Source of the DNA: Psychrobacter cryohalolentis K5
GTDB taxonomy: Bacteria; Pseudomonadota; Gammaproteobacteria; Pseudomonadales; Moraxellaceae
Direction of reading: 5' to 3'
Length of the DNA: 32,000 nt
Assembly: GCF_000013905.1 (NCBI RefSeq)
Contig: NC_007969.1
Coordinates: forward strand, 2,250,001 to 2,282,000
Position numbers and translations under genes: made by a program. The notes beneath the pieces were generated by a model. The model had not been told where the DNA came from and ran no database searches. It saw nothing but the letters and a program-made list of their open reading frames with translations. Positions 2-22,542 of this stretch are shown piece after piece (positions within the stretch are counted from its first letter, which is position 1; every line of letters begins with the position of its first letter).

Positions 2-865
2 GGTACACTGCATGGGCAAATCAAAGTGACCGAACAAGGCGAAGTCCTTTATGCCAAATATGCCAACACTGATACCGCTGTATTTGAGCTGACCATGGGC
101 ATCACTGGCACGCTTAAAGCTTGCTCCTCAAGATTCGTGGTGCAACCGCCTGAACTGCCACATTATGAAGCGCTCTTTGCGCGTTTAGCAGATGCAGGTG
201 AGCAGCGTTATCGCAAGCTAACGGATCATACCGAAGGGTTTTATCAGTTCTACTCTCAAGCGACGCCAGTGGCAGAAATCTCTTTATTAAATATTGGCTC
301 ACGCCCAGCACATCGTAATAAAGGCTTACCAAGCAAAACAACCTTGCGCGCAATTCCTTGGGTATTTGGCTGGTCATTAGCGCGCTTTACACTGCCCGCT
401 TGGTATGGTGTCGGCAGTGCGTTGCATAGCGTCATCGATGATGAAGCACTGATGAAAGAAATGATTGACTGCTGGCCATTTTTTAACGTGTTTATTAGCA
501 ATATTGAAATGGCGTTTACCAAGTCTGATATGAGTATTGCTCATGCTTATAGCCAATTATGTGACGATGAGAGGTTACGTGAACAGATTATGACAGCGGT
601 GACGGATGAGCACGAGCTTACCCATTCAGGTTTAAACTCTTTGCTTAACCAAGAGTCGTTATTGGAGCATCAGCAGAATCTTGCCGCTTCTCTTGAATGG
701 CGTAATGCGTATTTAGATCCAACCAACTATATCCAAATTGAGCTATTGAAGCGTGCCAGACAAAAAGACGCTACAAGCGATACCAATCATGGTGACCTCG
801 ACGTTGAAGATCCATTAATCCGTAGTATTAATGCCTTGGCAGCAGGTCTACGCAATACAGGGTAA
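2..865 (+). CDS. ppc: Phosphoenolpyruvate carboxylase, C-terminal ~287 aa (5' end lies upstream of the window)
   Basis: Frame 2 is open from nt 2 (GTLHGQIKVTEQGEV...), so the GTG at 26 is only an internal codon. The product has the VTEQGE motif and ends ...AAGLRNTG*, matching the conserved PEPC C-terminus (E. coli Ppc ends ...MRNTG). Confidence 0.9.
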   Translation, partial: GTLHGQIKVTEQGEVLYAKYANTDTAVFELTMGITGTLKACSSRFVVQPPELPHYEALFARLADAGEQRYRKLTDHTEGFYQFYSQATPVAEISLLNIGSRPAHRNKGLPSKTTLRAIPWVFGWSLARFTLPAWYGVGSALHSVIDDEALMKEMIDCWPFFNVFISNIEMAFTKSDMSIAHAYSQLCDDERLREQIMTAVTDEHELTHSGLNSLLNQESLLEHQQNLAASLEWRNAYLDPTNYIQIELLKRARQKDATSDTNHGDLDVEDPLIRSINALAAGLRNTG

Positions 866-890
866 TGGATAACACAGAAAAATATATGCA

Positions 891-934
891 AAAAAGACAG
901 TACTTTTAGTATTTCCTAAAGGTACTGTCTTTTA
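891..934. terminator. Bidirectional rho-independent terminator between convergent ppc and the GntR gene
   Basis: aaaagacagtac (892-903) pairs with gtactgtctttt (923-934). The 12-bp perfect stem is flanked by an A-run on one side and a T-run on the other. Confidence 0.6.
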
Positions 935-986
935 ATGTGTTTATCTCAAACGGTTACTTAATTATCAATATAGGTTTAATAAACGC

Positions 987-1766
987 CTAAATAATATTAA
1001 TCTCATAGCTGAACTTCTCTGCCAGCCCATAGGACTCTCTATATTCGATAGGATCACCTTCTAGATTCTTCGCAATGCGGCATACCTTAACTAAGTTTTC
1101 TTGCTTAGTATTGCCCAAATAATCGTCGCTGTGATCGGTTATAAAATACAGCGTCTCTACAGCAGACGACACAAATTGACCACACTTGGTATAGTAAAAA
1201 GGATAGAGAAGATTCTCGAAATCTTCAGGATTTAAGGTTGCAAAAGCTTGGAAGCGACTCTTAGGTAACCAAATTTTTTCACTTAACAAGACTCTGTCTT
1301 CAACCATACGCGTACGCTCTATATAAATGAGCGCTTTGTTTTTACCTATATTTAGTTTTTTATTAATGTCATCAATACCGTCTATAACTATGATTTTTTT
1401 AATTATGCCCGTCGGCGTGACATAGCGAGCATCTTTATCACGAAACTTAAAAAACCTTAATAGTGAGCTTGCAAAATCTGGACGTTTTAAGAAGGTGCCT
1501 TTGCCTTGCTGCTTTATTAACACCCCATCTTCTACCAATTTTTCGACCGCTTTACGGACGGTTCCTACAGATACTTCATACTTATCTGCAAACTCCTGCT
1601 CCGTCGGTAAGGGCGTGTTTTCATCCCACTTACTCTCTGTCAGTAACGTCTGTATATGCCATCGCACTTGCTCATAACGTGGCATCTTAAATTCTTTGAA
1701 ATTATTTAGCATTTTTTTCACCACAGTGGAAAGGTTTTTATTAACTGTTTCAATCTCGTCAAGCAC
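987..1766 (-). CDS. GntR-family transcriptional regulator, HutC/FarR-like (wHTH plus UTRA-type effector domain)
   Basis: N-terminal LPTEQEFADKYEVSVGTVRKAVEKLVEDGVLIKQQGKGTFL is a typical GntR winged helix-turn-helix, and the ~240 aa size fits the HutC subfamily. The longest ORF starts with GTG at 1766. ATG at 1685 (MPRYEQV...) fits the family N-terminus better, and no clear SD precedes either start. Confidence 0.85.
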   Translation of the reverse strand: MLDEIETVNKNLSTVVKKMLNNFKEFKMPRYEQVRWHIQTLLTESKWDENTPLPTEQEFADKYEVSVGTVRKAVEKLVEDGVLIKQQGKGTFLKRPDFASSLLRFFKFRDKDARYVTPTGIIKKIIVIDGIDDINKKLNIGKNKALIYIERTRMVEDRVLLSEKIWLPKSRFQAFATLNPEDFENLLYPFYYTKCGQFVSSAVETLYFITDHSDDYLGNTKQENLVKVCRIAKNLEGDPIEYRESYGLAEKFSYEINII

Positions 1767-2053
1767 TGCTATTGCTGTAAAACTACGTTATCCCTGATCA
1801 ACTTCTCTTAAGCTTTCAGCGCATTCGATCGGTATCACATTAATATTAAAGCATTATTATATTTTTATGATGAATCTTTCCTAATTAACGCCAACTTTTT
1901 TGCTATCATTCTATTCAAACAAATGCACTTTGAAGATTTATAAGCTCTTCTAGTCCAGAAAACCCTGTGTCAATATTAGCGTAATACTCTTTACTCTGTA
2001 AAAACTGCTATGGTTTTTTATAGAATTCATACAGTTAAGGTCAAGGAGTAGTC

Positions 2054-3343
2054 GTGACTCTTTATATTCTAGCCGCCATCGTGATATGTATCATTTTGGG
2101 CTATACCACTAAGATTAATATTGGCCTATTTGCTATTGCATTTTCATATCTAATCGGTTGTTTCGGTATGGGGATGAAGGCACATGAAATTGTTGAGCTA
2201 TGGCCTCTCAAAATTTTCTTTGTTATTTTTGCGGTGACTCTTTTCTATAACTTTCCCCTAGCTAACGGTGCTTTAGAAAAGCTATCCAATCATTTAATCT
2301 ATAAGTGCCGTCACTTTCCCGCATTCCTACCTTTAGTCATTTTCCTTGTGGCCACGATTATTGCAGGCTTAGGGGCTGGTTATTATACGGTCTTAGCAAC
2401 GATGGCACCGATGATCCTGCTATTGTCTAAACGCACTAACTTGAATCTTGTCATTGCTACTTTATCAGTGAACTATGGTGCCTTAGCGGGTGCTAACTTT
2501 ATCACCTCACAAAGCGGTGTTATTTTTAGAGAGCTGATGCGCGGCGCAGGCGTCGCAAATGATAATACTTTTACTTATGTGTTAGGGATATTCGCTGTCA
2601 CTTTTATAATGCCTATGATTGTATTGGGTGCTTATAGCTTTATCAATGCCAAAAACAGCAAAATCGCGATTCAGACGACCATACCAGAACCCTTTGATAG
2701 TAAACAAAAACAGTCTCTTATACTGATTTTTATTATGATGGCTATTGTACTTATCGTGCCCATTTTAAATCTACTCATGCCACAAGTATCAGCGATTCAG
2801 TTTTTGAACGCTCGGATTGACATTGGTTTTATCGCTATATTTTTTGCTTTAGTGAGCTTATTTTTAAAATTAGGCGATGAAAAAGCAGTGATTGCTTTAA
2901 TACCTTGGAATACCCTCATTATGATTTGTGGTGTTGGTATGTTAATCAGCCTCGGAGTAGAAATAGGTGTTATTTACGAGCTGACAGAATGGCTAAGTAC
3001 CAATGTACCCATCTGGATGATACCGATTTTAGTCTTTGTGATTAGCGCCATTATGTCGATATTTGCTAGTACGCTCGGGGTAGTCGCCCCTACCTTATTC
3101 CCTATGGTCCTTCCCCTAGCCGTTGCCTCTGGACTAAGCCCTTTATTACTATTTACCTGTATTGTTGTGGGGGCGCAAAGCTCATCACTCTCGCCTTTCT
3201 CATCAGGAGGTAGTCTGATGTTAGGCGCTTCTCAAGTCGTTATAAACAAAGACAAGCTTTTTAATGCGCTACTATTCAAGGCAGTGCCCTTAGATATTGG
3301 TATTGGAATACTCGCAATTTTACTTATCCAGCTGATATTTTAA
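2054..3343 (+). CDS. Polytopic inner-membrane permease, probably an ion-transporter-superfamily anion/carboxylate carrier (MatC/CitMHS-like)
   Basis: 429 aa and almost entirely hydrophobic, with roughly 12 predicted membrane segments. Two Ser/Gly-rich hairpin-like motifs are present (NYGALAGANFITSQSG and GAQSSSLSPFSSGGS). GTG start at 2054 sits 5 nt after AAGGAG (2043-2048). The family name is from memory only. Confidence 0.65.
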   Translation: MTLYILAAIVICIILGYTTKINIGLFAIAFSYLIGCFGMGMKAHEIVELWPLKIFFVIFAVTLFYNFPLANGALEKLSNHLIYKCRHFPAFLPLVIFLVATIIAGLGAGYYTVLATMAPMILLLSKRTNLNLVIATLSVNYGALAGANFITSQSGVIFRELMRGAGVANDNTFTYVLGIFAVTFIMPMIVLGAYSFINAKNSKIAIQTTIPEPFDSKQKQSLILIFIMMAIVLIVPILNLLMPQVSAIQFLNARIDIGFIAIFFALVSLFLKLGDEKAVIALIPWNTLIMICGVGMLISLGVEIGVIYELTEWLSTNVPIWMIPILVFVISAIMSIFASTLGVVAPTLFPMVLPLAVASGLSPLLLFTCIVVGAQSSSLSPFSSGGSLMLGASQVVINKDKLFNALLFKAVPLDIGIGILAILLIQLIF

Positions 3344-3848
3344 CTTCTCATAGGTAAAATATACCGTGATTTTTTAAAAATTTTACACCTGCTTGCTATA
3401 TTTTTGCTCCCAAAATATCTATTTTTCTCACTAAATTCATAACTGCTTAAATTGTTGTTTTAGCCTCGTAATGGTACTGATATCAACGTGGTTTTTGATA
3501 CATCTAAATAATTCTCATTATCATCCAATCATACCAACTACTTGTTTTTATTTGACTTTAATACCTTACCTTAGAGGCATTAGGGTCTTTTACTTGTCCT
3601 TCATATCCCTATCGCAGAAGATTCTATATCGCCTTCAATTTAATATATTACTATAAAATTCATATATACATACATATGTTTCTTGTTATTTTTAAAATAT
3701 TCTGTTACTTTTGGCAAGTGATAAATCTCTACTGTTACGAAGTTTAGTCATCTCGTTAATCGAGTCTTCACTTTACCTGTAATAACTTTATATTTTGGCC
3801 AAAATTCTATTGAATTTTTATTGTAAAAATACACACAAGGAGTGTCGT

Positions 3849-4889
3849 GTGAAAAAACTATCCTATCTGGCTCTTGGCCTGTCTATCCTATCTTTGACCG
3901 CTTGTAACAATGCAAACGAAACTGCCAGTACAGATGCGACTGCCGTAGATGGCGCAACTGAGCTCACTGCCCCTTCACGTCCAGAATGTATTGCGCCTGC
4001 CAAACCAGGTGGCGGTTTTGACTTGACTTGTAAGCTTGCTCAAGCTGGCTTAAGAGATACTGGTATCTTAAAAGATCCTATGCGCGTCACCTATATGCCA
4101 GGCGGCGTCGGCGCTGTTGCTTATAACAAAATCGTTGCTAATGACCGTGACAATGGCGATGCCATTATTGCCTTCTCTACCGGCTCTATTCTTAATTTAT
4201 CGCAAGGTAAATTTGGTAAATTCACTGAAAAAGACGTGAAATGGCTAGCTGGTGTTGGTACTGATTATGGTGCTATTGCAGTCAATGCAGACTCTCCTAT
4301 TAAAGATCTAGCTGGGTTAGTTGCTGAGCTCAAAAAAGATCCAAAAGCTATCAGCTTTGGTGCTGGCGGTAGTGTTGGCGGTCAAGATTGGATGCAAACC
4401 GCTATTTTAGCTAAAGCCGTTGGGGTTAAGCCTAGTGACATGACTTATGTTGCCATGGAAGGCGGCGGTGAAGCGATCACAGCGGTGATGGGCAATCATA
4501 TTACTGTTGTTAGTGCCGGTATTGCTGAGATTATGCCGCAAGCCAATGCAGGTAAATTACGTGTATTAGCAGTATTTGCAGATGAAAGATTGGGCGGCAC
4601 GATGACCGATATTCCTACTGCGAAAGAGCAAGGTTATGATGTGACGTGGCCAGTCGTTCGTGGTTACTACATGGGTCCAGACGTAAGCCCTAGTGCTTAT
4701 AACTGGTGGAAAGAGGCTTTCGATAAGATGCTTGTTGATCCGAAATTCGCTGAAATACGTGAGCAACAAGAATTGCTACCTTTCTCTATGACTGGCGATG
4801 AGCTACAAGCCTACGTTTATAAACGTACGGGCGAACTACGCGAGTTATCTGCTGAATATGGTCTTGTTGAAGCAGCACCAACCAAATAG
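3849..4889 (+). CDS. tctC: Tripartite tricarboxylate transporter (TTT) periplasmic substrate-binding protein, Bug/TctC family, lipoprotein
   Basis: GTG at 3849 is preceded by AAGGAG (3837-3842). The N-terminus VKKLSYLALGLSILSLTAC carries a lipobox. The ~346 aa size fits the family, and the gene lies directly upstream of tctB-like and tctA-like genes. The track ORF start at 3795 (TTG) adds 18 unlikely residues. Confidence 0.85.
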   Translation: MKKLSYLALGLSILSLTACNNANETASTDATAVDGATELTAPSRPECIAPAKPGGGFDLTCKLAQAGLRDTGILKDPMRVTYMPGGVGAVAYNKIVANDRDNGDAIIAFSTGSILNLSQGKFGKFTEKDVKWLAGVGTDYGAIAVNADSPIKDLAGLVAELKKDPKAISFGAGGSVGGQDWMQTAILAKAVGVKPSDMTYVAMEGGGEAITAVMGNHITVVSAGIAEIMPQANAGKLRVLAVFADERLGGTMTDIPTAKEQGYDVTWPVVRGYYMGPDVSPSAYNWWKEAFDKMLVDPKFAEIREQQELLPFSMTGDELQAYVYKRTGELRELSAEYGLVEAAPTK

Positions 4890-8320: not shown

Positions 8321-8856
8321 AACAAGCTTTCCATCACTATAAAATCTAAACTTTTATTTCTAGATATCATTGCATTCTATTCGCTAAAGAATAGCTATCG
8401 CCAAGCATAAACCTTGTCAAAAACAACGGACATATTTCACTCATCTTCACTGCAAGCAAGATATTACCTTTCTAACGCCCCAAGCATCCAATTTCCGCTA
8501 TACATCAGCGACTTAGAGCTGGATATTAAAAAAATATCAAGCTTTATGACTGCCTTCTATGACCCAAGTTTAACCAACTAACCATCACACACTAAATGTG
8601 ATTTTTAAGCACTATTCGAGTGTACAGTTGCACACATATATGTTACAATATATATACAAATACTTGAATATATATTTAGTTTATATAATAAATGTATATA
8701 TATTGTTATTATCAGGTAATTGTACTGTGTGGATAGGTTCCAAATTATTAAAAGATCTGATTTTAGATCTTACTACGGTAAATTTTAGTATTCAGTTGAA
8801 TCCTAAATTTTATATTTTTGAAAACGCTAAAAAACCTAATCCTTTGGAAATTGACT

Positions 8857-9375
8857 ATGTTATTTAAAAAATCGGTTATGACCGCGGCCGTATTTGCCGT
8901 TGGTAGTTTTGCTGTAATGTCTGCGAATGCTGCTGAATCTGGAACTTTTGATGTCAATATGACTGTTACAAAAACCTGTAATGTAGTAGCAGGTTCTACT
9001 GTTGGGTTAGGTAATACTGTCGCTGGTACTAGTGATCAGTCAAACCTTACTTCTACTCCTGTTAAGGTTAATTGCTCTAATACAACGCCTTATAAACTTG
9101 GGCTAACAACAAATACAGGTATAGCTGGTGCAGGGGTTATGCTAGGAGGAGTTGGTGGTACAGAACAAATATCCTATGAGATGTTTAGCAATGCAGGTCA
9201 TACAGCTCTTTGGGGTAACAATGCTGTTGCTGAAAGTGAGAACAGAGTTCCTGGCACAGGCGATGGTATGGCGACTACTGCTAAAGAACATATAGTCTAT
9301 ATAAAAGCAGGTAGTACTAGTAATGTCTCGCCAAGCTTATATAAAGATACTATTACTGTTAATGTATCTTATTAA
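8857..9375 (+). CDS. Spore-coat-protein-U (SCPU) domain pilin, major subunit of an archaic Csu-type chaperone-usher pilus
   Basis: ATG at 8857 follows GGAAA (8846-8850). The signal peptide is MLFKKSVMTAAVFAVGSFAVMSANA. The mature protein is Gly/Thr/Asn-rich with a Cys pair (TKTCNV...VNCSN) and a ...TITVNVSY C-terminus typical of SCPU/CsuA-B-like subunits. It is followed by chaperone and usher genes. Confidence 0.8.
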   Translation: MLFKKSVMTAAVFAVGSFAVMSANAAESGTFDVNMTVTKTCNVVAGSTVGLGNTVAGTSDQSNLTSTPVKVNCSNTTPYKLGLTTNTGIAGAGVMLGGVGGTEQISYEMFSNAGHTALWGNNAVAESENRVPGTGDGMATTAKEHIVYIKAGSTSNVSPSLYKDTITVNVSY

Positions 9376-9380
9376 TAATC

Positions 9381-10145
9381 ATGCTAAGTCCTCAGTTACA
9401 ACGCATGCTAAGACCTACTCTTCTTATCTCCACCTTGCTATTGTCCTCTAGTGTGGCAGTGGCAGCGGGTTTACAGGTATCGCCCATCTCGCTAAGCTTA
9501 CAGGCACGCGAGACAGCGAGTGGTCTGACACTCAGCAACACCAGTAACACTGTGGTGCAGGCGCAGGTACGCGTACAGAAGTGGACTCAGGATGGCACAG
9601 GTGACCAGCTTATCCCATCGCGAGGACTGCTCGCCAGTCCGCCGATGATTGAGCTACAGCCCGGTGAGCGGCAGCTGGTACGCATTATCCGCGCCAAAGC
9701 ACCGCCGCAAGGTGCAGGCGCTATAGAGGACGCGTACCGATTGTTGGTCAATGAGGTGCCAGTTAATTTACCCGAGAATACCAGCGGGCTACAGTTTGCG
9801 CTCAGCTACTCGCTACCGGTCTTTATACAGCCTGTTGGCGTGACTAAAACCAGTGCGCAGTTGCAGTGGAGTACTCATCTGCAATCGGATAGCAAGGCGG
9901 TCAAGCTGCGCGTGAGTAATCGCGGTAATGGGCATGCGCAATTGGCGGGGCTAAGCTTTAGTGATGCGGCAGGTACGAGTACGGAGCTCTATCCCGGTTT
10001 GCTTGGTTATGTGTTACCCGGTGCGACTATGAACTGGACACTGAAAATACCACCCTCCGTGCTAACTTCAGGGGGTAAATTCAAGGTTATGCTAAATGGT
10101 ACACAGACGACACCTGACGTCACACTGGACACAAACACTCGCTAA
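9381..10145 (+). CDS. Periplasmic pilus chaperone (PapD fold, CsuC-like)
   Basis: The signal peptide ends ...SSSVAVAA, followed by GLQVSPISL...LTLSNTSNTVVQAQVRV..W, a typical chaperone N-domain. The 254 aa size fits, and the gene sits between pilin and usher. Confidence 0.85.
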   Translation: MLSPQLQRMLRPTLLISTLLLSSSVAVAAGLQVSPISLSLQARETASGLTLSNTSNTVVQAQVRVQKWTQDGTGDQLIPSRGLLASPPMIELQPGERQLVRIIRAKAPPQGAGAIEDAYRLLVNEVPVNLPENTSGLQFALSYSLPVFIQPVGVTKTSAQLQWSTHLQSDSKAVKLRVSNRGNGHAQLAGLSFSDAAGTSTELYPGLLGYVLPGATMNWTLKIPPSVLTSGGKFKVMLNGTQTTPDVTLDTNTR

Positions 10146-12660
10146 AGTCGTTTTTTTGCAAGGTGTGGCAGTATCTATTAGCCACGCCGCGGCACTGAGT
10201 GAAGATATCTCTACGAGCAGCGTTGATACCAACGCTGCTTTTTTGCGTGTTGCGAAAGCTATGGAGCCTACAATTCAGGCTCAAACGGATACCATTGCTC
10301 AGGCTAATATAGATGCGGATTTGGCTCAGCTTGATTTGGACCGTTATAGTGATGATGACGATGCAGGGCTGGATTTATATCTGGACGTCACGCTGAATGG
10401 TGCCAGTAAGGGTCTAGTACACTTCGACTACCGTGATGAGCGCCTTTGGGCAACAGCAGCTATCTTGCAACAGCTGAGCTTTGTGTTGCCTCCATCGCTA
10501 CAGGCAAGCCGTGACCCTATCGCCCTTGACAGCCTACCTAAGCTGAATATTGACTACGATGCACGCCAGCAAACACTCACCCTTATTGCTCCACTCGATA
10601 TGCTCAAGCTAGATACGACTACCCATAGTACGCGCACCAATAAGCGCCCAAAAGCGAGCGCCTCGCCCGGTCTGTTATTAAACTATGACCTGTATGGCAG
10701 TCAAACTCAGAATAGCACTAAAAGTCTGAGCGCCTATACGGAGCTGCGCGCCTTTAATGCGCTTGGCGTGGTCAGCTCTACCGCCTTAACGACTGCAAAT
10801 ACGGCTGCTAATGACAGTCGCCACAGTCAGTGGAAGGGTCAAACCGTGCGCCTTGATACTAGCTGGAGTCAATCCTTCCCTGATAAGCTGCTGACGGTTC
10901 GGGCAGGCGATATTCTGACCGGTGCATTATCGTGGACGCGGTCGACACGTTTGGGCGGTCTACAAATCGGCACCAACTTTAATCTGCAGCCTTATCGCTC
11001 GACCACACCGTTGCCATCGTTTTTTGGCTCAGCAACTCTACCCTCAAAGGTAGAGCTGTTTGTTGATGGTCTTAAACACTATAGCGGTGAGGTGCCCGCC
11101 GGTCCCTTTGAGCTGGACACCGCGCCTAGTATCAGTGGCGCAGGAACGGCGCAACTGGTGGTCACCGATGCCTTGGGTCAAAGCAAGACGCTAAACTTTT
11201 CCTTATATGACACCCATCGACTGCTCCAGCCCGGACTGTCTGATTGGTCAGTTGAGATGGGCGCAGTGCGTGAAAATTATGGGACGGAATCTTTTGATTA
11301 TGGGGATGCGCTTGCCGCCAGTGGAACTTGGCGCCATGGGGTGTCCAACCGTTTTACCGCTGAAACCCATGCCGAAGTGACGCACGGTCTCTCCAATGCA
11401 GGTGTCGGTGGGACTTGGCTATTGGGGCGCGCTGGTGGTATTTTGTTTGCCTCGCTAGCCGCAAGCCATAGTCAGGGACAAAGCGGCATGCAGTACAGCA
11501 CCAATTATTCATGGAATAATCGTCGCTTTAACATTGGTTTTAATGCGCTGGGAACTTCTGGTGTATATCGCGATGTAGGCTCCCAATATGGCAATGCCCC
11601 TGTACATCGAAGTGAGCAAATATCTACTGGTTATAGCATACCGACGCTCGGTAATTTTGGGCTAAGTTACCATCAGGTTGCCCAAGCTGAAAAAGAGGAC
11701 ACGCAATTTGCCCGTGTCTCTTGGTCCAAATCCTTTGGCAGACGAGTAAGTATGAACCTCAATTATAACCATGACTTTGACCAATCAGCAAAAAGTAGCC
11801 TGTCGATAGGCGCATCGCTATCACTAGATCGCAATATGTCAATGCGAAATAGCTTGCAACACACCGCAGCGCAAGACATCATCACAGCAGATATCTCAAA
11901 ATCAGCGCCAAGCGCAGGTGGCATTGATTGGCGCGCGCAGGTACGCCACAGCGCGGCTAGCCAATCAGACGACAGCTTAAATAGTAATACTAAAGACAGT
12001 ACAGGCGCGTTGGCTGAGCTGAGCTACCTTGGACGCTACGGACGGGTTCAGGCTGGTATCAGTAGTAATGATGACAGCTATGCCACTTACGCCAGTGGCA
12101 CAGGGTCACTTGTGATGATGGGCGGCGGCATGTTTCCTGCGCGCCAAATTAATAGCGGATTTGCGGTGGTATCGACTGGCGGTATCGCTGATGTGCCCGT
12201 CCTATTGCAAAACAATCCTATTGGCACGACCAACCACCGCGGGCTGCTGCTAGTGACACCGCTCAATGCCTATCAAGAGAATAAGATTGCTATCGACCCC
12301 ATGCAGTTGCCTGCTGACTTACGTATTAATAAAGTCAGTCTGGACGCAACCCCAACCGACCGTGCCGGAGTTATGGTCGCTTTTGATATTACCCCTGTGC
12401 GCTCAGCAACCATTGTATTAATCGATAGCGATGAGCAACCGATTGCACTTGGTAGTCAAGTCACCTTGATCTCCAACGAAGATACGCCAACCACTGTAGT
12501 GGGTTTTGATGGTGAGGTATATTTGGATACATTGGATGCCCACAATACACTGGAGGTCACTACCCCTGCTGATGGCATTTGTACTGTGCGCTTTAAGTAC
12601 ACCAAGCAAGGCGATGAGATTCCGCTCCTCGGTCCTTTTATCTGTAAAAAGGTACAATAA
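10096..12660 (+). CDS. Outer-membrane fimbrial usher (CsuD-like)
   Basis: 854 aa. It has the LYLDVTLNG... plug/N-domain style motif and a long beta-rich, Gly/Ser/Tyr-rich barrel region. ATG at 10096 gives a plausible signal peptide (HRRH...VVFLQGVAVSISHAAA|L) but overlaps the chaperone gene by 50 nt, so the start is not certain. Confidence 0.88.
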   Translation: MVHRRHLTSHWTQTLAKVVFLQGVAVSISHAAALSEDISTSSVDTNAAFLRVAKAMEPTIQAQTDTIAQANIDADLAQLDLDRYSDDDDAGLDLYLDVTLNGASKGLVHFDYRDERLWATAAILQQLSFVLPPSLQASRDPIALDSLPKLNIDYDARQQTLTLIAPLDMLKLDTTTHSTRTNKRPKASASPGLLLNYDLYGSQTQNSTKSLSAYTELRAFNALGVVSSTALTTANTAANDSRHSQWKGQTVRLDTSWSQSFPDKLLTVRAGDILTGALSWTRSTRLGGLQIGTNFNLQPYRSTTPLPSFFGSATLPSKVELFVDGLKHYSGEVPAGPFELDTAPSISGAGTAQLVVTDALGQSKTLNFSLYDTHRLLQPGLSDWSVEMGAVRENYGTESFDYGDALAASGTWRHGVSNRFTAETHAEVTHGLSNAGVGGTWLLGRAGGILFASLAASHSQGQSGMQYSTNYSWNNRRFNIGFNALGTSGVYRDVGSQYGNAPVHRSEQISTGYSIPTLGNFGLSYHQVAQAEKEDTQFARVSWSKSFGRRVSMNLNYNHDFDQSAKSSLSIGASLSLDRNMSMRNSLQHTAAQDIITADISKSAPSAGGIDWRAQVRHSAASQSDDSLNSNTKDSTGALAELSYLGRYGRVQAGISSNDDSYATYASGTGSLVMMGGGMFPARQINSGFAVVSTGGIADVPVLLQNNPIGTTNHRGLLLVTPLNAYQENKIAIDPMQLPADLRINKVSLDATPTDRAGVMVAFDITPVRSATIVLIDSDEQPIALGSQVTLISNEDTPTTVVGFDGEVYLDTLDAHNTLEVTTPADGICTVRFKYTKQGDEIPLLGPFICKKVQ

Positions 12661-13637
12661 TGTTACGACTTCAAAGCTATCATCTATTGATCATACTAGT
12701 AGTGGGTTTATTCTTAGCCAACCCTATAACCGCAAATGCCGCTATTAGCTGTACTCAAGCGAGTAACACCATCAGTAATTTAAACTTCGGTCCTGTCAAT
12801 CCCTTCTCAAGTACAACCTCAACCTCAGCGACCATTAACTATGAATGCAGAGGCAGTGAGGGACGCGCGTCAACTGCTAGAATTTGCTATACCTTTGGTC
12901 CTTTGAACACCGATGACCACAAGCTACTTGGACCGAACAATACAACATTGGCTTTTGATTTATTTTCAAGTTCAAGCCATGGTGCGCCTATTAGTAAAGC
13001 CAATCCGCTACAACTGACACTTAGTAGTGATGGGAGTAGCACACTTATCAAAGGCAATATTACAGTATATGCGCAAACACTCGCTGGGCAGACGCAGCTG
13101 GTTTCAGGAGATTACACACTTAATAATCAGATATATATGACTGTGAACTCAGTGGATAGCAGTAGTGCGCCTAATGATTGTCTGGCGGTTACTGATACCT
13201 CAACCTACGCATTTACATATACCAGTCAGGCATCTGTTGACGCTCACTGCGCAGTTACTACGGCAGGTGTATTGGATCTTGGACGCGTTTCGGCATCAAC
13301 TGTGCCCACGATAGGTTCAGCAAGCAACCTTATCAATGTCACCTGTACCAATACGACTTTTTATAATATTGGCTTAGCGCCTTCGAATAAGGATATAAAT
13401 GGTCAGGGCGTTATGACAGGAACCAATGCCGAGCCTACCTTACCTTATCAACTACAATCTGATGCAAGCGGTACAGAATGGGGCAATAACGGAAATACTT
13501 ATGCCGCCCTCACCAATGGTGTAACAGGTACAGGAGATGGTGCGGCGAAAGCCCATACAGTGTACGTTACTGTACCGAACACTGATGTCACCCCTAATAC
13601 CTATTCTGATAGGGTGACTGTGACCGTGTATTATTAA
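12660..13637 (+). CDS. Two-domain SCPU-family pilus subunit, probable tip adhesin (CsuE-like)
   Basis: The start overlaps the usher stop (TAATG at 12658-12662). The signal peptide ends ...ITANA. At 325 aa it is about twice pilin size, with two SCPU-like halves each carrying Cys pairs, and the C-terminus ...RVTVTVYY resembles the pilin C-terminus. Confidence 0.7.
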   Translation: MLRLQSYHLLIILVVGLFLANPITANAAISCTQASNTISNLNFGPVNPFSSTTSTSATINYECRGSEGRASTARICYTFGPLNTDDHKLLGPNNTTLAFDLFSSSSHGAPISKANPLQLTLSSDGSSTLIKGNITVYAQTLAGQTQLVSGDYTLNNQIYMTVNSVDSSSAPNDCLAVTDTSTYAFTYTSQASVDAHCAVTTAGVLDLGRVSASTVPTIGSASNLINVTCTNTTFYNIGLAPSNKDINGQGVMTGTNAEPTLPYQLQSDASGTEWGNNGNTYAALTNGVTGTGDGAAKAHTVYVTVPNTDVTPNTYSDRVTVTVYY

Positions 13638-15108: not shown

Positions 15109-16869
15109 TTAGTTAATAGTAATCTCTTCCGTTGGATAACGGTAGTTACGCTCATGTCTATTTTTGAGTAAGGCAATAAAAATCGTCAGCATACTGACAC
15201 GCCCAACAAACATAATGAATGACACCACAAGCTTGCTAAAAGTAGACAGCTCCGTGGTCAGGTTCAAGCTTAAGCCCACCGTGCTATAAGCTGAAAAACA
15301 CTCAAATATCACTTTAATCAAATCAAGCTCAGGCTGATCATAACTGATCAAAGTCACGCCCAGCCCAATGACCAATAAGGACAACCACATAACAGAAAAC
15401 GCACGGCGAATTGAGTTATCTGCAATTTCGCGTTTGAACACTTCAACTTTGGTCTGTCCACGTGCCAAACTCAACGTATTTAGGAAAGCAATGGCAAAGG
15501 TGCTGGTTTTAATACCACCACCAGTAGAGTTTGGAGATGCCCCAATCCACATCAAAAAAATGGTCAGCATGATGGTTGGAAAAGCCAAGGCATTCATATC
15601 GATATTGTTAAAGCCTGCGGTTCGCGGTGTCGCAGCAGTAAAAAGCCCCGCTACCAGCTTGCCATACCAGCTGCTGTGCTCAGCCAACACACCATGATAT
15701 TCAAACATCATCACCCCAATCAGCCCTACTAACAGCAAAGCGCCAGAGGTGATTAAAGTGATCCGACTATTGATACTCAACAGCCACGGCTGGTAGGCAT
15801 AGCGCTGTCCATCACGACACAGCGCTCTTTGCATACGGTGACGCAGATAGCGGAGCAAGTTAACGACAATCAAAAAGCCCATACCGCCAAATAAAAAGGT
15901 AATACTGATAATCAGCTGTAAAGGATAATTAAAGCGCAGTGATTCATCGTATAACCCTGCACTAAAAGTAGAGAATCCAGCATTGCAGAATGCCGAAACG
16001 GCATGAAATACAGAGAAGAATAAACGCTCAAATATGCTCATGCCTGCCAAATCATAAACACTTATATAAATCAGTATTGCTGCCAGTGCCTCAATACCAA
16101 AGGTGACATATAAAATAGACTTTAAGGTTGTCACCATATCGCCCATACGTGGCGAATATGTCATCTCACTGATACTAAGCTGGGTCTCGTAACTGATACC
16201 ACCCTTAAAGAAGTAACTAAAATAAGTCACAAACGTTAGGATGCCAAGACCGCCAATTTGGATAAGACCTAGGATAATCACTTGCCCAAAGGTAGTGAAA
16301 TGGGTTGCGGTATCGACAACAATCAATCCAGTTACACAGACGGCACTGGTCGCGGTAAATAAGGCGTCTATAAAGGAGATGGGTTGATTTGTAGCATTTG
16401 GCATCATTAGCAATAATGATCCGACTAGTATCACTGATAAAAAACTTAAGATAAAAAATTGACCGGGGTTTAAAAAGGCTCGGTTAAGACTAAAATTATT
16501 ATCTGATATTTCACGGATGAAAGTGACTAGTACGGCAATCTTGATGGCAATAAAACCATCAGCGGGCGTAGACAACCCCGATTGAAACAATTCAGTAAAA
16601 TGTAGGACGAGCAAGATTAAAATGGCAATGCTGGTCAGCAAATCAAAGACAGCTACTTTATTGACCGTCAGGCGTATTTTTGGACGTATATAACGTCTTA
16701 GCGTAGTGACAAAACTGAGTAAAATTATACTCAGATAAAACAGGTGAAACACTTGTTGTAACCATGCGGACAATGTAAAACCACTGTCAATTAAGGCAAC
16801 ACCGACACCAATAAGGCTTATTACAACGATAAATTTATTTAATAACCGATACGGTATGCCCACATACAT
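15109..16869 (-). CDS. trkH: TrkH/KtrB-family K+ transporter membrane subunit with an extended N-terminus
   Basis: 586 aa polytopic protein with repeated selectivity-filter-like segments (TAVCVTGL, FCNAGFS, RTAGFN, STGGGIKT, STVGLS) characteristic of the Trk/Ktr/HKT superfamily. It lies directly upstream of the trkA-like gene. Confidence 0.85.
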   Translation of the reverse strand: MYVGIPYRLLNKFIVVISLIGVGVALIDSGFTLSAWLQQVFHLFYLSIILLSFVTTLRRYIRPKIRLTVNKVAVFDLLTSIAILILLVLHFTELFQSGLSTPADGFIAIKIAVLVTFIREISDNNFSLNRAFLNPGQFFILSFLSVILVGSLLLMMPNATNQPISFIDALFTATSAVCVTGLIVVDTATHFTTFGQVIILGLIQIGGLGILTFVTYFSYFFKGGISYETQLSISEMTYSPRMGDMVTTLKSILYVTFGIEALAAILIYISVYDLAGMSIFERLFFSVFHAVSAFCNAGFSTFSAGLYDESLRFNYPLQLIISITFLFGGMGFLIVVNLLRYLRHRMQRALCRDGQRYAYQPWLLSINSRITLITSGALLLVGLIGVMMFEYHGVLAEHSSWYGKLVAGLFTAATPRTAGFNNIDMNALAFPTIMLTIFLMWIGASPNSTGGGIKTSTFAIAFLNTLSLARGQTKVEVFKREIADNSIRRAFSVMWLSLLVIGLGVTLISYDQPELDLIKVIFECFSAYSTVGLSLNLTTELSTFSKLVVSFIMFVGRVSMLTIFIALLKNRHERNYRYPTEEITIN

Positions 16870-17160
16870 AGCTTAGGTCCAGAAAAGGAATAACCAGAAT
16901 ACTTATACTCCTTTTTTCTGTCATATACTAAGCGTGGTTTTAGATAATCGTAACCAGTTATGTGCTCTAACATCAGCCACTACAATATTCGTCATAGTTA
17001 CTTATCTAACGATTACTTTAACAAAATTATCTCCACCGTTTTATCAGCAGAGAACTTATGTTAACGAGCACTATTTATTATAATGTATTAACAATAAAAC
17101 CACTGATTGCGGTAGCGATTATTGCCAGACTGAATAAACGATCAAGGACAAGGATTTGTT

Positions 17161-17313
17161 ATGAAAATGATTTCTAAAGATAGCGTACACTCATTGATAC
17201 CGACCATCCACTATAGTACTGGCTGTACCTGCCCAAAGTGCGGCTGTAGCGCGGCATCAACTTGTGATAAATGTGATCGCTGTTCAAAATGCTGTGAGTG
17301 TGGTGAAAAGTAG
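17161..17313 (+). CDS. Small cysteine-rich protein (50 aa), candidate metallothionein; below the size cut-off of the ORF track
   Basis: My translation: MKMISKDSVHSLIPTIHYSTGCTCPKCGCSAASTCDKCDRCSKCCECGEK*. It has 10 Cys in the last 29 residues. AAGGA (17150-17154) lies 6 nt before the ATG, and a strong terminator follows 36 nt after the stop. No homology search was possible. Confidence 0.5.
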   Translation: MKMISKDSVHSLIPTIHYSTGCTCPKCGCSAASTCDKCDRCSKCCECGEK

Positions 17314-17348
17314 TCATTCTTACCATAGCCTTTTGAGCTACTCATATT

Positions 17349-17378
17349 AAAAAAGCAGCCTCTAGAGGCTGCTTTTTT
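17349..17378. terminator. Bidirectional rho-independent terminator between the Cys-rich ORF (+) and the DUF305 gene (-)
   Basis: aaaaaagcagcctct/agaggctgctttttt is a perfect 15-bp palindrome with a GC-rich core, flanked by an A-run and a T-run. Confidence 0.8.
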
Positions 17379-17464
17379 ATACTTCGAATTGCAAAATACT
17401 TAGTAAATATAGGGTCTACATTTCATTATAGTAAGGTTTAAGTATTAAAGTTTAGGTGTTAAAT

Positions 17465-18205
17465 TTAACTTTTATTTGCTGCAATCCAGCTTTGCATCTG
17501 CTCAATTTCAGGCTGCTGGGCGTCGATGATCTCTTGCGCCAGCTTACGCATCTCAGGATTTTTACCATATTTAAGCTGCGTTTCTGCCATATCGACTGCC
17601 CCAGTATGATGAAGTAACATGCCACGAGCAAATGCCATATCTGGTACTGGGTCAGCAATACCTTTCATCATGTCACCATGCATCGCATCCATACCCTTAG
17701 CATAAGCTTGCTGCATGGCTTTGGTATCCGCTGTTGGCATTTTGCTATCAGGATTGTTGGCAAGCCATGTTTTCATCTGCTCAATCTCAGACTGCTGGGC
17801 GTCGATGATTTCTTGTGCAAGCTTACGCATCTCTGTATCGGTGCCATATTTTAGCTCAATCTCTGCCATATCTACCGCGCCAATATGATGAGCAAGCATG
17901 CCCTGAGCAAATGCTGCATCTGGATCGTTATAATCCATACCAATCATATCTTCATTCATTTTGGTCATTGAGTCAGTGTATTCTTTGAGCATAGCCGTCA
18001 TTGGTGTGCCGTCAGCGACCATAGCGCCTGCACTCATATCATGAACTGCATGCGGGTCCGCTGCAGCAGTATTTTCTTGTACAGCCTTTTGCGATGCAGC
18101 ATCTTCTGTGGCAGTCACGTCAACCTTCTCATTGGCTGGTTGACAGGCACTTACTGCCAATAAGGCACTGGTAGCGAGAGCAAAGGTGCTTAATTTATTA
18201 TTCAT
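17465..18205 (-). CDS. Periplasmic lipoprotein with two tandem DUF305 (CopM-like, His/Met-rich four-helix) modules
   Basis: The lipobox is ...LLAVSAC. The segment FAxGML.HH.GAVDMAE..LKYG...EMRKLAQEIIDAQQ.EIEQM..W occurs twice. The protein is rich in Met, His and Asp. Confidence 0.8.
   Translation of the reverse strand: MNNKLSTFALATSALLAVSACQPANEKVDVTATEDAASQKAVQENTAAADPHAVHDMSAGAMVADGTPMTAMLKEYTDSMTKMNEDMIGMDYNDPDAAFAQGMLAHHIGAVDMAEIELKYGTDTEMRKLAQEIIDAQQSEIEQMKTWLANNPDSKMPTADTKAMQQAYAKGMDAMHGDMMKGIADPVPDMAFARGMLLHHTGAVDMAETQLKYGKNPEMRKLAQEIIDAQQPEIEQMQSWIAANKS
17484..17923 (-). repeat. Intragenic tandem duplication of the DUF305 module (two units of about 160 bp, offset 279 bp)
   Basis: 17484-17644 and 17763-17923 align without gaps. 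For example, catctgctcaat starts at 17495 and at 17774, and gctgggcgtcgatgat and cttacgcatctc are shared. The 279-nt offset equals 93 codons. Identity is roughly 80% by eye. Confidence 0.8.
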
Positions 18206-18264: not shown

Positions 18265-18909
18265 TTATAGCTGTTGCTCGGTTGAGACAATATCAGCATA
18301 GACCTCAGTAGTACCATCTTTATTAAGCTGCATAATCTGATAAGGGGCAAATTTATTTTGATACTCCATACCTGGACTACCAACTGGCATACCAGGTACC
18401 GCAAGACCTAGGGCTTGTACTGGTGGGTTTTCTAAAAACTGCGCCACATATTTGGCTGGTACATGACCTTCAAAGACGTAACCGTCGGTTGTGACAGCAG
18501 TATGGCAAGAGCGCATCTCAGTTGGTACGCCGTAGCGCTCTTTAAATACTGCCAAATCCGTAACATCGTGCGCAGTGGCGCTCAGACCATTGTCTTCTGC
18601 ATGACTAATCCAGTCTTTACAGCAGCCGCAATTGGCATCTTTGTAGACCGTTGCTGAGACGTTTTTTAATAAATCTGGATTGCTGGCTGGCGTTGTTATT
18701 GCCGATTCCGTTTGAGCGTTTGATTCAGCAACATTTGCGGTGACTGCTGCGCCATCGTCATTTTGTAAGGAGCTTGCATTGGACGCGCTACTGTCAGGTT
18801 GGCTACAGGCAAATAAGGCGGATGCAGCAACTAACCACACTGTACTTTGCAAGAGTTTATAAGAATGACGTTTGAAGGTAGGGCTAGAATCGGATGTAAA
18901 GGCGTTCAT
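18265..18909 (-). CDS. DUF411 / CopG-like periplasmic metal-binding lipoprotein (CxCC motif)
   Basis: The lipobox is ...ASALFAC, followed by a low-complexity linker. The C-terminal domain has VYKDANCGCCKDWISH (the CxCC motif of the copper-resistance CopG family), ...CHTAV..GYVFEGHVPA and GMPVGSPGME. Confidence 0.8.
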   Translation of the reverse strand: MNAFTSDSSPTFKRHSYKLLQSTVWLVAASALFACSQPDSSASNASSLQNDDGAAVTANVAESNAQTESAITTPASNPDLLKNVSATVYKDANCGCCKDWISHAEDNGLSATAHDVTDLAVFKERYGVPTEMRSCHTAVTTDGYVFEGHVPAKYVAQFLENPPVQALGLAVPGMPVGSPGMEYQNKFAPYQIMQLNKDGTTEVYADIVSTEQQL

Positions 18910-18933: not shown

Positions 18934-18964
18934 ATTATACCAAATAACCCTTAGGCTCAATCAA
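18934..18964 (-). promoter_or_regulatory. Candidate promoter of the DUF411-DUF305 operon
   Basis: The minus strand reads cTTGATTgagcctaagggttatttgGTATAATgca. The -10 is TATAAT with an upstream TG (extended -10), and the -35 TTGATT sits 19 nt upstream. It lies about 25 nt before the ATG at 18909. Confidence 0.35.
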
Positions 18965-19037
18965 GACAGTCAGGCGTTTAACATAGTGACTTTAACAAAA
19001 CATGACATTCAGATAACAATGCTGGCAGGTTGGCATA

Positions 19038-20833: not shown

Positions 20834-20909
20834 TCTCCAATAGCTCAGTTGGTAGAGCAACGGACTGTTAATCCGTGTGTCCCTGGTTCGAGCCCAGGTT
20901 GGAGAGCCA
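20834..20909 (+). tRNA. tRNA-Asn (anticodon GTT)
   Basis: The 76-nt cloverleaf has acceptor TCTCCAA/TTGGAGA, a D-arm AGCTCAGTTGGTAGAGC, an anticodon arm ACGGA-CTGTTAA-TCCGT, a T-arm CTGGTTCGAGCCCAG and an encoded CCA. It closely resembles E. coli tRNA-Asn. Confidence 0.95.
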
Positions 20910-21103: not shown

Positions 21104-21433
21104 ATGATACCTGCACGTATAAAAAATAAGTTTTCTGATCATCCGCAAAAAATCATGCGCCCTATCAGTATTCGCCTCTCTGAAGAGATGATTGAGCTTT
21201 TAACGGCGACCGCATCAGAGCTTGGATTTAAGCGTATTCAAGGCTTGATTCGCCTATATATCCGTCAAGGTCTTGATCGTGACCATCAAGACTATACGCT
21301 TGCCCATGATGAAGTTTTTATTGAGACATTACGCAAAAAAGGCGTGAGCCAGCGTATTATTGATGAGGCGATTGTGGTGACTCACAATAACAATATCACC
21401 CATTCATTGTCTGATCTGCAAGAAAATAAATAG
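21104..21433 (+). CDS. Small ribbon-helix-helix (CopG/Arc/MetJ-like) protein, antitoxin-like architecture, no partner toxin gene
   Basis: RPISIRLSEEMIELLTATASELGFKRIQGLIRLYIRQGL has the beta-strand/helix/helix pattern of RHH DNA-binding domains. A C-terminal tail of about 50 aa follows. The family call rests on pattern only. Confidence 0.5.
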   Translation: MIPARIKNKFSDHPQKIMRPISIRLSEEMIELLTATASELGFKRIQGLIRLYIRQGLDRDHQDYTLAHDEVFIETLRKKGVSQRIIDEAIVVTHNNNITHSLSDLQENK

Positions 21434-21636: not shown

Positions 21637-22368
21637 ATGGGTTTATACAAACGTTTAAACAAAGTTGTGTTATTGACTGTGAGCTTGGGGCTGTTTCCTG
21701 CCCTGTACGGTTGCTCGCAGCCGCAAGTAGATCCTAGCCAGCAAACCATACCGACCAACTCTGATCAGTGGCAAAAAACACTGGGCGATACCTTTGAGCG
21801 TCTACCTGAAGCAGATAGAAAGCTGCTAAGTCGTTATATGCTACGTATGAAGCTTAGTAGCGCCTATGAATCAGGCGCGATGCCGCGTATTACTATTAAA
21901 CAAGCTTTGATCCAACAGCGCGAATATGAGCGCCTACATCCAAACAACCCAACGGGTAAGAAAAGTCCCATTGTAACCAGTCAAAAGCTCGAAACTGCCA
22001 ATCACCTCAATTATCCTGTTGCCCTATTACCAGTCAAAACCAGCGATAGTGACAGCTTAAACCAAGTCAAGCTACAGTTTATGCTGTCAAATCATGGCAA
22101 ATTAGCTATCGAAAGTTTTCAAGGTACTCTCACGATGAAAGAGAAACGTTTGACCAAGAATAAACGCTTCAACGTGCCATTAACCCAGTTTGAGCCGCCT
22201 ATCGCTCCAGAACAATCTGGCAAGATAATCATTGAGAGCAGTATCGAAGACATCAATGTTATGCGTGCTATTAAAAATAACACAGGAGTAAGCATTGAAA
22301 TCACTGAGGGTAAAATGATATTAGCGGATGGGCAGGAAATCGAATTTGACGAGTTACTAGCCAAATAA
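21637..22368 (+). CDS. Lipoprotein of unknown function
   Basis: GGAGG (21622-21626) precedes the ATG. The signal peptide with lipobox is ...LGLFPALYGC. I recognise no motif in the 243 aa. Confidence 0.6.
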   Translation: MGLYKRLNKVVLLTVSLGLFPALYGCSQPQVDPSQQTIPTNSDQWQKTLGDTFERLPEADRKLLSRYMLRMKLSSAYESGAMPRITIKQALIQQREYERLHPNNPTGKKSPIVTSQKLETANHLNYPVALLPVKTSDSDSLNQVKLQFMLSNHGKLAIESFQGTLTMKEKRLTKNKRFNVPLTQFEPPIAPEQSGKIIIESSIEDINVMRAIKNNTGVSIEITEGKMILADGQEIEFDELLAK

Positions 22369-22451: not shown

Positions 22452-22542
22452 TGGCGGAGACGGAGAGATTCGAACTCTCGAAGGGCTATTAACCCTTGTC
22501 GGTTTTCAAGACCGGTGCATTCAACCGCTCTGCCACGTCTCC
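22452..22542 (-). tRNA. tRNA-Ser (anticodon TGA), class II with long variable arm
   Basis: The reverse complement is GGAGACGTGGCAGAGCGGTTGAATGCACCGGTCTTGAAAACCGACAAGGGTTAATAGCCCTTCGAGAGTTCGAATCTCTCCGTCTCCGCCA, 91 nt. The anticodon loop is CTTGAAA. It resembles E. coli tRNA-Ser(UGA). Confidence 0.95.

Follow-up and report, generated by a model that had tools for sequence, protein, structure and literature searches.

A 50-codon cysteine-rich gene of Psychrobacter represents a metallothionein-like family that is often attached to copper islands

Psychrobacter cryohalolentis K5 carries a short open reading frame (ORF) that encodes a peptide of 50 residues with ten cysteines. It lies on the plus strand of a 32,000-nucleotide stretch of DNA (contig NC_007969.1, positions 2,250,001 to 2,282,000 of the forward strand), which was analysed as a whole and is called the window; coordinates without a locus name refer to it. 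The ORF represents a new metallothionein-like gene family that is under selection and is often attached to copper islands. In the reading that we favour, with a probability of roughly 0.6, the product is a cytoplasmic peptide of the metallothionein type that forms a thiolate cluster and probably buffers Cu(I), and the family is one seen only in Psychrobacter. Metal binding, the preference for copper, the stoichiometry and induction by metal are the parts of this reading that we infer.

The ORF and its product

The translation of the ORF, MKMISKDSVHSLIPTIHYSTGCTCPKCGCSAASTCDKCDRCSKCCECGEK, is identical to the 50-residue peptide given in an original prediction that was made from the nucleotide letters, before any database search. 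The ten cysteines (residues 22, 24, 27, 29, 35, 38, 41, 44, 45 and 47) are confined to the C-terminal 29 residues, which contain no F, W, Y or H, and two histidines, His10 and His17, lie N-terminal to the array, all as had been described; in the relatives only His17, together with Tyr18, is kept. The array follows a Cys-free N-terminal segment of 21 residues and spans 29 residues in the arrangement C-x-C-x2-C-x-C-x(C)x3-C-x2-C-x2-C-x2-C-C-x-C, so that the Cys-rich part, 34% of which is Cys, is built of CxC, CxxC and CC units whose filler residues are drawn from K, S, T, G, D and E. In size and Cys content (<10 kDa, CxC/CxxC/CC units, few aromatics) the peptide resembles the metallothioneins. 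It has neither a signal peptide nor a hydrophobic core. The AlphaFold2 (AF2) model, for which the input alignment held only four sequences, was of low confidence (predicted local distance difference test score, pLDDT, of 59), which is as one would expect of an apo-metallothionein.

The AAGGA Shine-Dalgarno sequence of the original prediction is present, and a further AAGGA occurs upstream at 17144-17148. In the alignment of the copies (A1), the columns of the AGGA core (A312-A315) and of the ATG are invariant, and the Shine-Dalgarno sequence is kept in all contexts except that of a decayed paralog at locus L070, where it reads GAAGA. A 4-bp inverted repeat, A(T/C)AA-GGAT-TT(A/G)T, surrounds the core at 17146-17157 and has equivalents in L003, L007 and L008, with an apparent compensatory change from T-A to C-G between lineages. 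It may form a small hairpin that presents or occludes the ribosome-binding site; because the repeat is broken in L001, L002 and L005, it is possibly a chance occurrence.

The ORF is a protein-coding gene under purifying selection

Loci were fetched around homologues of CopM, the product of the adjoining gene, and all six frames were then scanned for Cys-dense ORFs. The same 50-codon ORF, convergent with copM and directly after it, was found in eight other Psychrobacter genomes (L001-L008), where all ten cysteines are retained and where six of the loci (L003-L008) have an 11th Cys at position 31. Every apparently intact copy keeps the ten window cysteines, and most relatives add the 11th. Apart from M1, K6, H17 and the ten cysteines, the invariant columns are K26, T34, D39 and K43, while P14, Y18, G28, S33, K37, S42 and E49 are nearly invariant. 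A natural form of 41 residues in L073 has lost most of the N-terminus and retains P-IHY and 11 Cys.

The substitution pattern is that of purifying selection. Pairwise Nei-Gojobori ratios of nonsynonymous to synonymous substitution (dN/dS) were 0.03-0.35, with dS near saturation in distant pairs. At nine of the ten invariant Cys columns the codon switches between TGT and TGC, and the amino acid is never altered. The summed ratio of nonsynonymous to synonymous differences (pN/pS) was 0.17 in the Cys-rich half, compared to 0.53 in the N-terminal half, and all other reading frames are interrupted by stops in each of the 13 copies examined. The ORF is thus a genuine protein-coding gene under purifying selection. 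Conservation of the ORF and of its Cys positions at the syntenic site, with synonymous-biased substitution, was the check that the original prediction had proposed for itself, and this is what was observed. A chance ORF is excluded by the dN/dS values well below 1 together with the conserved non-Cys residues.

Cys-dense ORFs of this kind are also scarce by chance. In a six-frame scan of 17 Psychrobacter loci (~147 kb) for at least 10 Cys in 30 residues, the only ORFs returned were those of the gene family itself and one hexanucleotide microsatellite. The latter is a perfect repeat of GTTCCT x 15 at L003:5573-5662, ~540 bp from the Cys-rich gene, and six-frame scans translate it into a false "Cys-rich ORF" of the form (SC)n.

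The gene moves as a self-contained unit

When copies from unrelated contexts were compared, homology began about 74-140 nt before the ATG and ended ~250 nt after it, which indicates that the conserved unit covers the 5′ region, the ORF and the terminator. The gene is a monocistronic, self-contained unit of ~350-400 bp that has moved between chromosomal sites and plasmids. Coordinates of the parts of this unit, of the neighbouring copper genes and of the decaying copies described below are collected in Table 1.

Table 1. Features of the Cys-rich gene, its neighbours in the window and its decaying copies.
Feature	Location	Strand	Remarks
Cys-rich gene, candidate metallothionein	17161-17313	+	50 codons; translation confirmed; purifying selection; without family match
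Shine-Dalgarno sequence AAGGA	17150-17154	+	6 nt before ATG; AGGA core conserved
Bidirectional intrinsic terminator	17349-17378		Common to the gene and convergent copM; perfect 15+15 palindrome with A-run and T-run
Conserved 5′ region	17054-17160	+	Presumed promoter and 5′ untranslated region; moves with the gene
Block A, TTAACAATAAAA	17088-17099	+	Candidate -35 element; ~73 nt before ATG; role inferred
Block B, TTGCCAGACTGAAT	17122-17135	+	Candidate -35 hexamer of a second promoter, or factor-binding site
copM (DUF305)	17465-18205	-	Predicted lipoprotein of a periplasmic copper-binding family; Pfam DUF305 1e-37, NCBIfam CopM 6e-64
DUF411 (CopG-like) gene	18265-18909	-	CGCC motif; Pfam DUF411 4e-23
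Decaying copy, L070	2794-2946		Same contig as L067; C41W and H17R
Decaying copy, P0002			Five Cys replaced by Tyr or Trp
Decaying copy, L079	5474-5626		C29Y
Decaying copy, L080	5295-5420		Internal deletion and stop
Decaying copy, P0010			Truncated after residue 41
Decaying copy, P0009			Stop lost, 5 residues added

The arms of the terminator palindrome are AAAAAAGCAGCCTCT and AGAGGCTGCTTTTTT, and its folding energy is -23.2 kcal/mol (z = -4.75). The palindrome was correctly placed by the original prediction, but it starts 35 nt past the stop codon and not 36. An A-run and a T-run flank the hairpin, which allows it to terminate transcription of both the ORF and the convergent copM. It is retained in the relatives and on the plasmids with a differing stem sequence. 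An Rfam search of 16800-17500 gave only sub-threshold matches, located on this hairpin, and no RNA element.

Two short blocks stand out upstream of the gene. Block A has the consensus TT[A/G]ACAATAA[A/G]A, which matches the window site with 0 mismatches and reads TTGACA in the relatives; chromosomal copies keep it (alignments A1 and A4), and in the plasmid copies it is not conserved. Of the 77 loci examined for the pattern of block B, TGCCASAMTRWRT, 15 contain it; it lies 38 nt before the ATG of the gene in each case and occurs nowhere else in these loci. Across contexts and plasmids its hexamer follows [T/C][T/A]G[C/A]CA, with TTGACA, TAGACA or CTGCCA in the relatives, and in most lineages TAAATA, TGAATA or TAAACA occurs 17 nt past the hexamer and directly abuts the AGGA. 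In the window clade, AGGACA takes that position instead. Manual inspection thus leaves two candidate promoters, one based on block A (~19-nt spacer) and one composed of block B, 17 nt and TAAATA. If block B is the promoter, the mRNA would be nearly leaderless.

Linkage to copper resistance genes

The original prediction had pointed to copper-handling genes as the convergent neighbours of the ORF. The DUF305/CopM and DUF411 (CGCC) genes are indeed adjacent, but copM alone converges with the ORF; the DUF411 gene is on the strand of copM and upstream of it. On the other side, trkH (15109-16869) and trkA lie upstream of the Cys-rich gene and are divergent from it. The convergent arrangement with copM is found in the window and in 12 other loci (L001-L008 and L066-L069). 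The order trkA-trkH, ORF, copM-DUF411-eamA-ygjP, with the ORF facing copM, is shared by the window, L001-L002 and L066-L069. In L003-L008 the far-side neighbour changes (DUF6847, FecCD, MntP or an unknown gene) and the copM junction remains constant. The distance between trkH and the Cys-rich gene is ~1.15 kb on the TARA contig L069 (729-1883), compared to ~290 bp in the window, which suggests an insertion.

A full copper island ends with copM in L003-L008. The island of L004 and L008 consists of DUF411, multicopper oxidase, CopB, short DUF305 and CopM genes, and that of L005 and L003 of P1B ATPase, DUF411, optional short DUF305 and CopM genes. The island ATPase has the motifs CPC, YNxxxxP and MxxSS, and the CPC/YN/MxxSS set denotes a Cu(I)/Ag(I) exporter in the P1B-1 classification. 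Overall, adjacency to copM or a Cu(I) island was seen in 5 of the ~10 independent contexts of the Cys-rich gene. The proposed copper link is stronger in the relatives, in which the gene closes full Cu(I) islands, than in the window from which it was proposed, but it is not universal.

The contexts without copper genes are varied. The gene was found between an amidohydrolase gene and ygjP (L063, L064, L071 and L072), between a LysR regulator and a peptidyl-prolyl isomerase (PPIase) gene (L070, the second copy on the L067 contig), after a Sel1-repeat gene (L073), in L065, and on three Psychrobacter plasmids, where the neighbours have no informative Pfam domains.

Other features of the window were recorded in passing. 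Upstream of the DUF411-copM pair, the minus strand has a promoter-like sequence at 18945-18977 (TTGATT, 19 nt, TATAAT). A 19-nt spacer is a length typical of promoters activated by MerR/CueR; no clear CueR dyad was seen at this site. Unrelated to the Cys-rich gene, a chaperone-usher pilus cluster is found at 8818-13637 on the plus strand; its usher (PF00577 and PapC_C) precedes a subunit with an SCPU domain (spore coat protein U-like). Genes for tRNA-Asn(GTT) (20834-20909, plus strand) and tRNA-Ser(TGA) (22452-22542, minus strand) flank two ORFs, 21104-21433 and 21637-22368, neither of which has a Pfam match.

Distribution, annotation and decay

About 20 homologous loci were found, and wherever the organism is named it is Psychrobacter. 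In a word-indexed search of 5.8 billion clusters, the single sequence as query found one cluster and a profile built from 11 sequences found three. Of the matches that an exhaustive phmmer search gave among 1.84 billion representatives, four were true members and two, P0004 and P0005, were spurious repeat proteins. Scanning of metagenomes contributed L066-L074, and tblastn against PLSDB yielded the copies on the three plasmids. There was no match in phage GenBank records and no second copy within the window. The sole IMG/VR match was rejected as an unrelated ParB-like protein with a C-terminal CxxC, as were the metagenome matches L075-L077, which are larger unrelated proteins. The sources whose origin is shown by name or record are all polar (for example Lake Vida brine, King George Island and the hosts of the Antarctic plasmids), and the named hosts include cold-adapted Psychrobacter species. 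P. glacincola CCUG 34874, P. frigidicola ACAM 304 and P. urativorans are among the carriers of the gene.

The suggestion that such a gene would be missed by annotation was borne out. Eight of the ten exact variants extracted from genomes are missing from a collection of 15 billion proteins, which indicates that the gene is usually not called. RefSeq calls it in a few genomes as "hypothetical protein" (WP_201532219.1, WP_187289115.1, WP_372843056.1, WP_188018903.1 and WP_333954276.1).

Several copies, among them second copies within a genome and plasmid copies, are decaying by loss of cysteines, truncation or loss of the stop codon (Table 1). The gene is accessory, is duplicated and is quickly lost. 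The fast loss of Cys in relaxed copies strengthens the case that the cysteines of the main lineage are functionally required.

Proposed function and alternative explanations

How the peptide would work can be outlined by analogy. The apo-peptide is probably disordered and would fold around a metal-thiolate cluster through its 10-11 thiolates, with His17 possibly capping the cluster as an extra ligand. Single-domain metallothioneins with 9-11 Cys take 3-4 divalent ions or ~6 Cu(I), and by analogy with such domains and with MymT, the load expected per peptide would be roughly 4-7 Cu(I) or 3-4 Zn/Cd. The peptide would buffer excess Cu(I) in the cytoplasm, the P1B-1 ATPase would export the buffered Cu(I), and CopM, DUF411, multicopper oxidase and CopB would handle copper outside the cytoplasm, in the periplasm. 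That the gene is so often found at the end of copper-resistance clusters makes buffering of cytoplasmic Cu(I) the most likely role.

Several observations weigh against this assignment. About half of the independent contexts (four chromosomal types and three plasmids) have no copper or other metal gene nearby, so that copper specificity rests on one part of the family and is uncertain. No metal-sensor gene is adjacent to the Cys-rich gene in any context examined, an inverted-repeat search found no conserved palindromic operator and no recognisable metal-sensor site upstream of it, a scan for the sigma-70 consensus found no plus-strand promoter there, and neither of the two candidate promoters suits all clades. 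No homology to any proven metallothionein was found with Pfam, phmmer, PDB or BLASTP searches. More distant Psychrobacter (L009-L017), whose CopM is 61-73% identical to that of the window, have no Cys-rich gene adjacent to copM, and the truncated or Cys-mutated copies in some strains imply that the gene is dispensable, accessory and turning over.

Other functions of a small Cys-rich protein were also considered. Small multi-CxxC regulatory proteins occur in prokaryotes, and the peptide could be a micro-protein in which one or two Zn(Cys)4 sites have a structural role; it would then serve another protein as regulator or adaptor and would not be a metal sink. The half of contexts without metal genes fits such a role, and the conserved His17-Tyr18 with K26, T34, D39 and K43 could make an interaction surface. 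We consider this unlikely. The CxxCxxCxxCCxC run and CxC pairs without a hydrophobic core are characteristic of thiolate clusters and unusual in zinc ribbons or knuckles, Pfam models of zinc ribbons and zinc fingers gave no match, no partner gene is conserved across contexts, and a copper cluster is the only neighbour that recurs. Less probable again is a sacrificial thiol or redox buffer, for instance one against reactive oxygen species or electrophiles where the habitat is cold and rich in oxygen, with metal binding incidental: a simple thiol pool has no need of a Cys spacing that is exactly invariant, and the recurrent linkage to copper islands would be left unexplained. In its favour are the polar sources and cold-adapted hosts, the position of one paralog near a gene of the OsmC-like peroxiredoxin family, and the role that metallothioneins also have in countering oxidative stress (PMC7558416).

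With its Cys-free N-terminal segment ahead of a Cys-, Ser- and Thr-rich core, the peptide recalls the precursor of a ribosomally synthesised and post-translationally modified peptide (a lanthipeptide, ranthipeptide or metallophore) with its modifying enzymes encoded elsewhere; the prochlorosins are known examples of scattered precursors with modification in trans. However, conservation is the reverse of what this predicts, with a variable "leader" and a constrained "core"; the L073 variant dispenses with most of the "leader" yet retains IHY together with the Cys array; the ~10 contexts show no adjacent gene for a maturase, protease or exporter; and no NCBIfam precursor model matched, all of which makes a modified peptide very improbable. 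A Cys-codon-rich regulatory leader ORF, acting by Cys or Cys-tRNA attenuation, or an ORF without function that arose by chance, would be short and could have ten Cys codons and a terminator downstream, as observed here. Conservation extends to non-Cys residues with dN/dS well below 1, and the leader ORF is excluded because in the window and in most other contexts a convergent gene follows the terminator, which leaves nothing to attenuate; we regard both as scarcely credible. Two further candidates were rejected: a secreted bacteriocin, for want of a transporter and of any signal or double-glycine leader, and a ferredoxin-like iron-sulfur protein, as there is no Fer4 match, no CP motif and no hydrophobic core.

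The thiolate-cluster peptide thus remains our preferred explanation. More tentatively, and at somewhat less than even odds, it could stand, next to SmtA/BmtA and MymT, for a third family of bacterial metallothioneins without homology to the others: a Cu(I)-thionein that only polar and cold-adapted Psychrobacter possess, borne on a cassette of ~350-400 bp that moves between copper islands, other chromosomal sites and mobilizable plasmids, and gained, duplicated and lost over short evolutionary times.

The buffering of cytoplasmic Cu(I) before its export is still poorly defined in Gram-negative bacteria. Few bacterial metallothioneins are known, and a very small, easily synthesised peptide tied to Cu(I) islands adds a testable candidate for a cytoplasmic copper buffer. 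With 10-11 Cys and one His in 50 residues, it may offer a new cluster-forming scaffold for metal-binding chemistry and bioremediation. The natural variants (Cys to Tyr or Trp, truncations, and forms with 10 or 11 Cys) amount to a ready-made mutational series, and the gene exemplifies the functional small genes that are overlooked by annotation pipelines.

Comparison with known metal-binding proteins

Scans of the peptide against Pfam, including the prokaryotic metallothionein model PF02069, and against NCBIfam gave no match at E <= 1, and a PDB profile search gave 0 matches at E <= 10; the true members returned by phmmer were all of the Psychrobacter type. By sequence, the peptide belongs to no described family, in line with the suggestion of the original prediction that it might be of an undescribed type. 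Reviews name only the SmtA-type proteins and MymT as bacterial metallothioneins (PMC7558416, PMC7387436), and these are the only two whose biological function had been studied according to a paper of 2020 (PMC7387436). Literature searches on Psychrobacter metallothioneins, on metallothioneins with DUF305 and on new families of bacterial metallothioneins found no description of the peptide.

Like SmtA, BmtA and PmtA, the peptide is a small bacterial Cys-rich protein with CxCxxCxC at the start of its array and with a His. The original prediction had noted the shared spacing of this first block, but the resemblance did not hold beyond the generic motif: BLASTP against the presumed SmtA sequence gave E = 1.6 over 10 residues, confined to CxCxxCxC. 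The structure of SmtA is in the PDB as 1JJD (PMC7558416), and as the PDB search that included it gave no match, kinship with SmtA is not supported. In contrast to SmtA, the Psychrobacter peptide has no aromatics of a zinc-finger fold in its Cys region. Its sole conserved His lies outside the Cys array. A neighbouring repressor of the ArsR/SmtB type is typical of smtA, if not universal; none was found beside the Cys-rich gene in the contexts examined, in which the neighbours were TrkH, CopM, DUF6847, FecCD, MntP, amidohydrolase, YgjP, LysR, PPIase, Sel1 and hypothetical plasmid proteins.

Copper-storage proteins of the Csp1 and Csp3 types are likewise Cys-thiolate copper stores. Csp1-type proteins have a twin-arginine translocation (Tat) signal and are exported to the periplasm, Csp3 is of a cytosolic type, and both are pre-folded four-helix bundles that form tetramers (PMC7558416), whereas the Psychrobacter peptide has only 50 residues and no predicted stable fold.

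With the single-domain Cu/Zn-thioneins of eukaryotes (the alpha and beta domains of mammalian metallothioneins and the fungal Cu-metallothioneins), the peptide shares a Cys content of ~35%, the mixture of CxC, CxxC and CC, the filler residues K, S, T, G and D, and the 9-11 Cys per cluster domain. The match to human MT2 (presumed sequence; BLASTP E = 0.064 over 11 residues) is compositional, and the Psychrobacter gene differs in being bacterial and in encoding the 21-residue Cys-free N-terminal segment.

A second tiny Cys-rich ORF was encountered on a contig of Candidatus Paceibacterota (L030:302-385, plus strand). This unannotated ORF encodes 27 residues with 9 Cys, MENTKCSCETCKCEKCACSDCGNNCCK, and is separated by 37 nt from a CsoR-like repressor gene downstream (422-694), which is followed by genes for a CopA-type P1B ATPase (699-3017) and a DUF305 protein (3839-4459). 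It looks like an independent metallothionein-like peptide within a copper operon. Like the Psychrobacter gene, it is small, unannotated and located inside a copper cluster with a DUF305 gene, but it was not detected as a homologue, and it is co-directional and probably co-transcribed with csoR-copA rather than stand-alone and convergent.

A close parallel in biology is MymT of Mycobacterium tuberculosis, once a non-annotated Cys-rich ORF of 4.9 kDa; copper resistance depends on it, and its thiolate core accommodates up to six Cu(I) (PMC7558416). Both are cytoplasmic products of unannotated small ORFs, of ~50 residues, with a Cys-poor N-terminus and a tie to copper resistance. They show no sequence similarity (BLASTP E = 0.7 against the presumed MymT sequence), the phmmer search of the 1.84 billion representatives gave no mycobacterial match, and the two differ in Cys/His pattern and in phylum, as well as in the lack of a copper-sensing repressor near the Psychrobacter gene. 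In summary, the comparison suggests that the peptide would work most like MymT or a single-domain Cu-thionein, while by sequence it stands alone.

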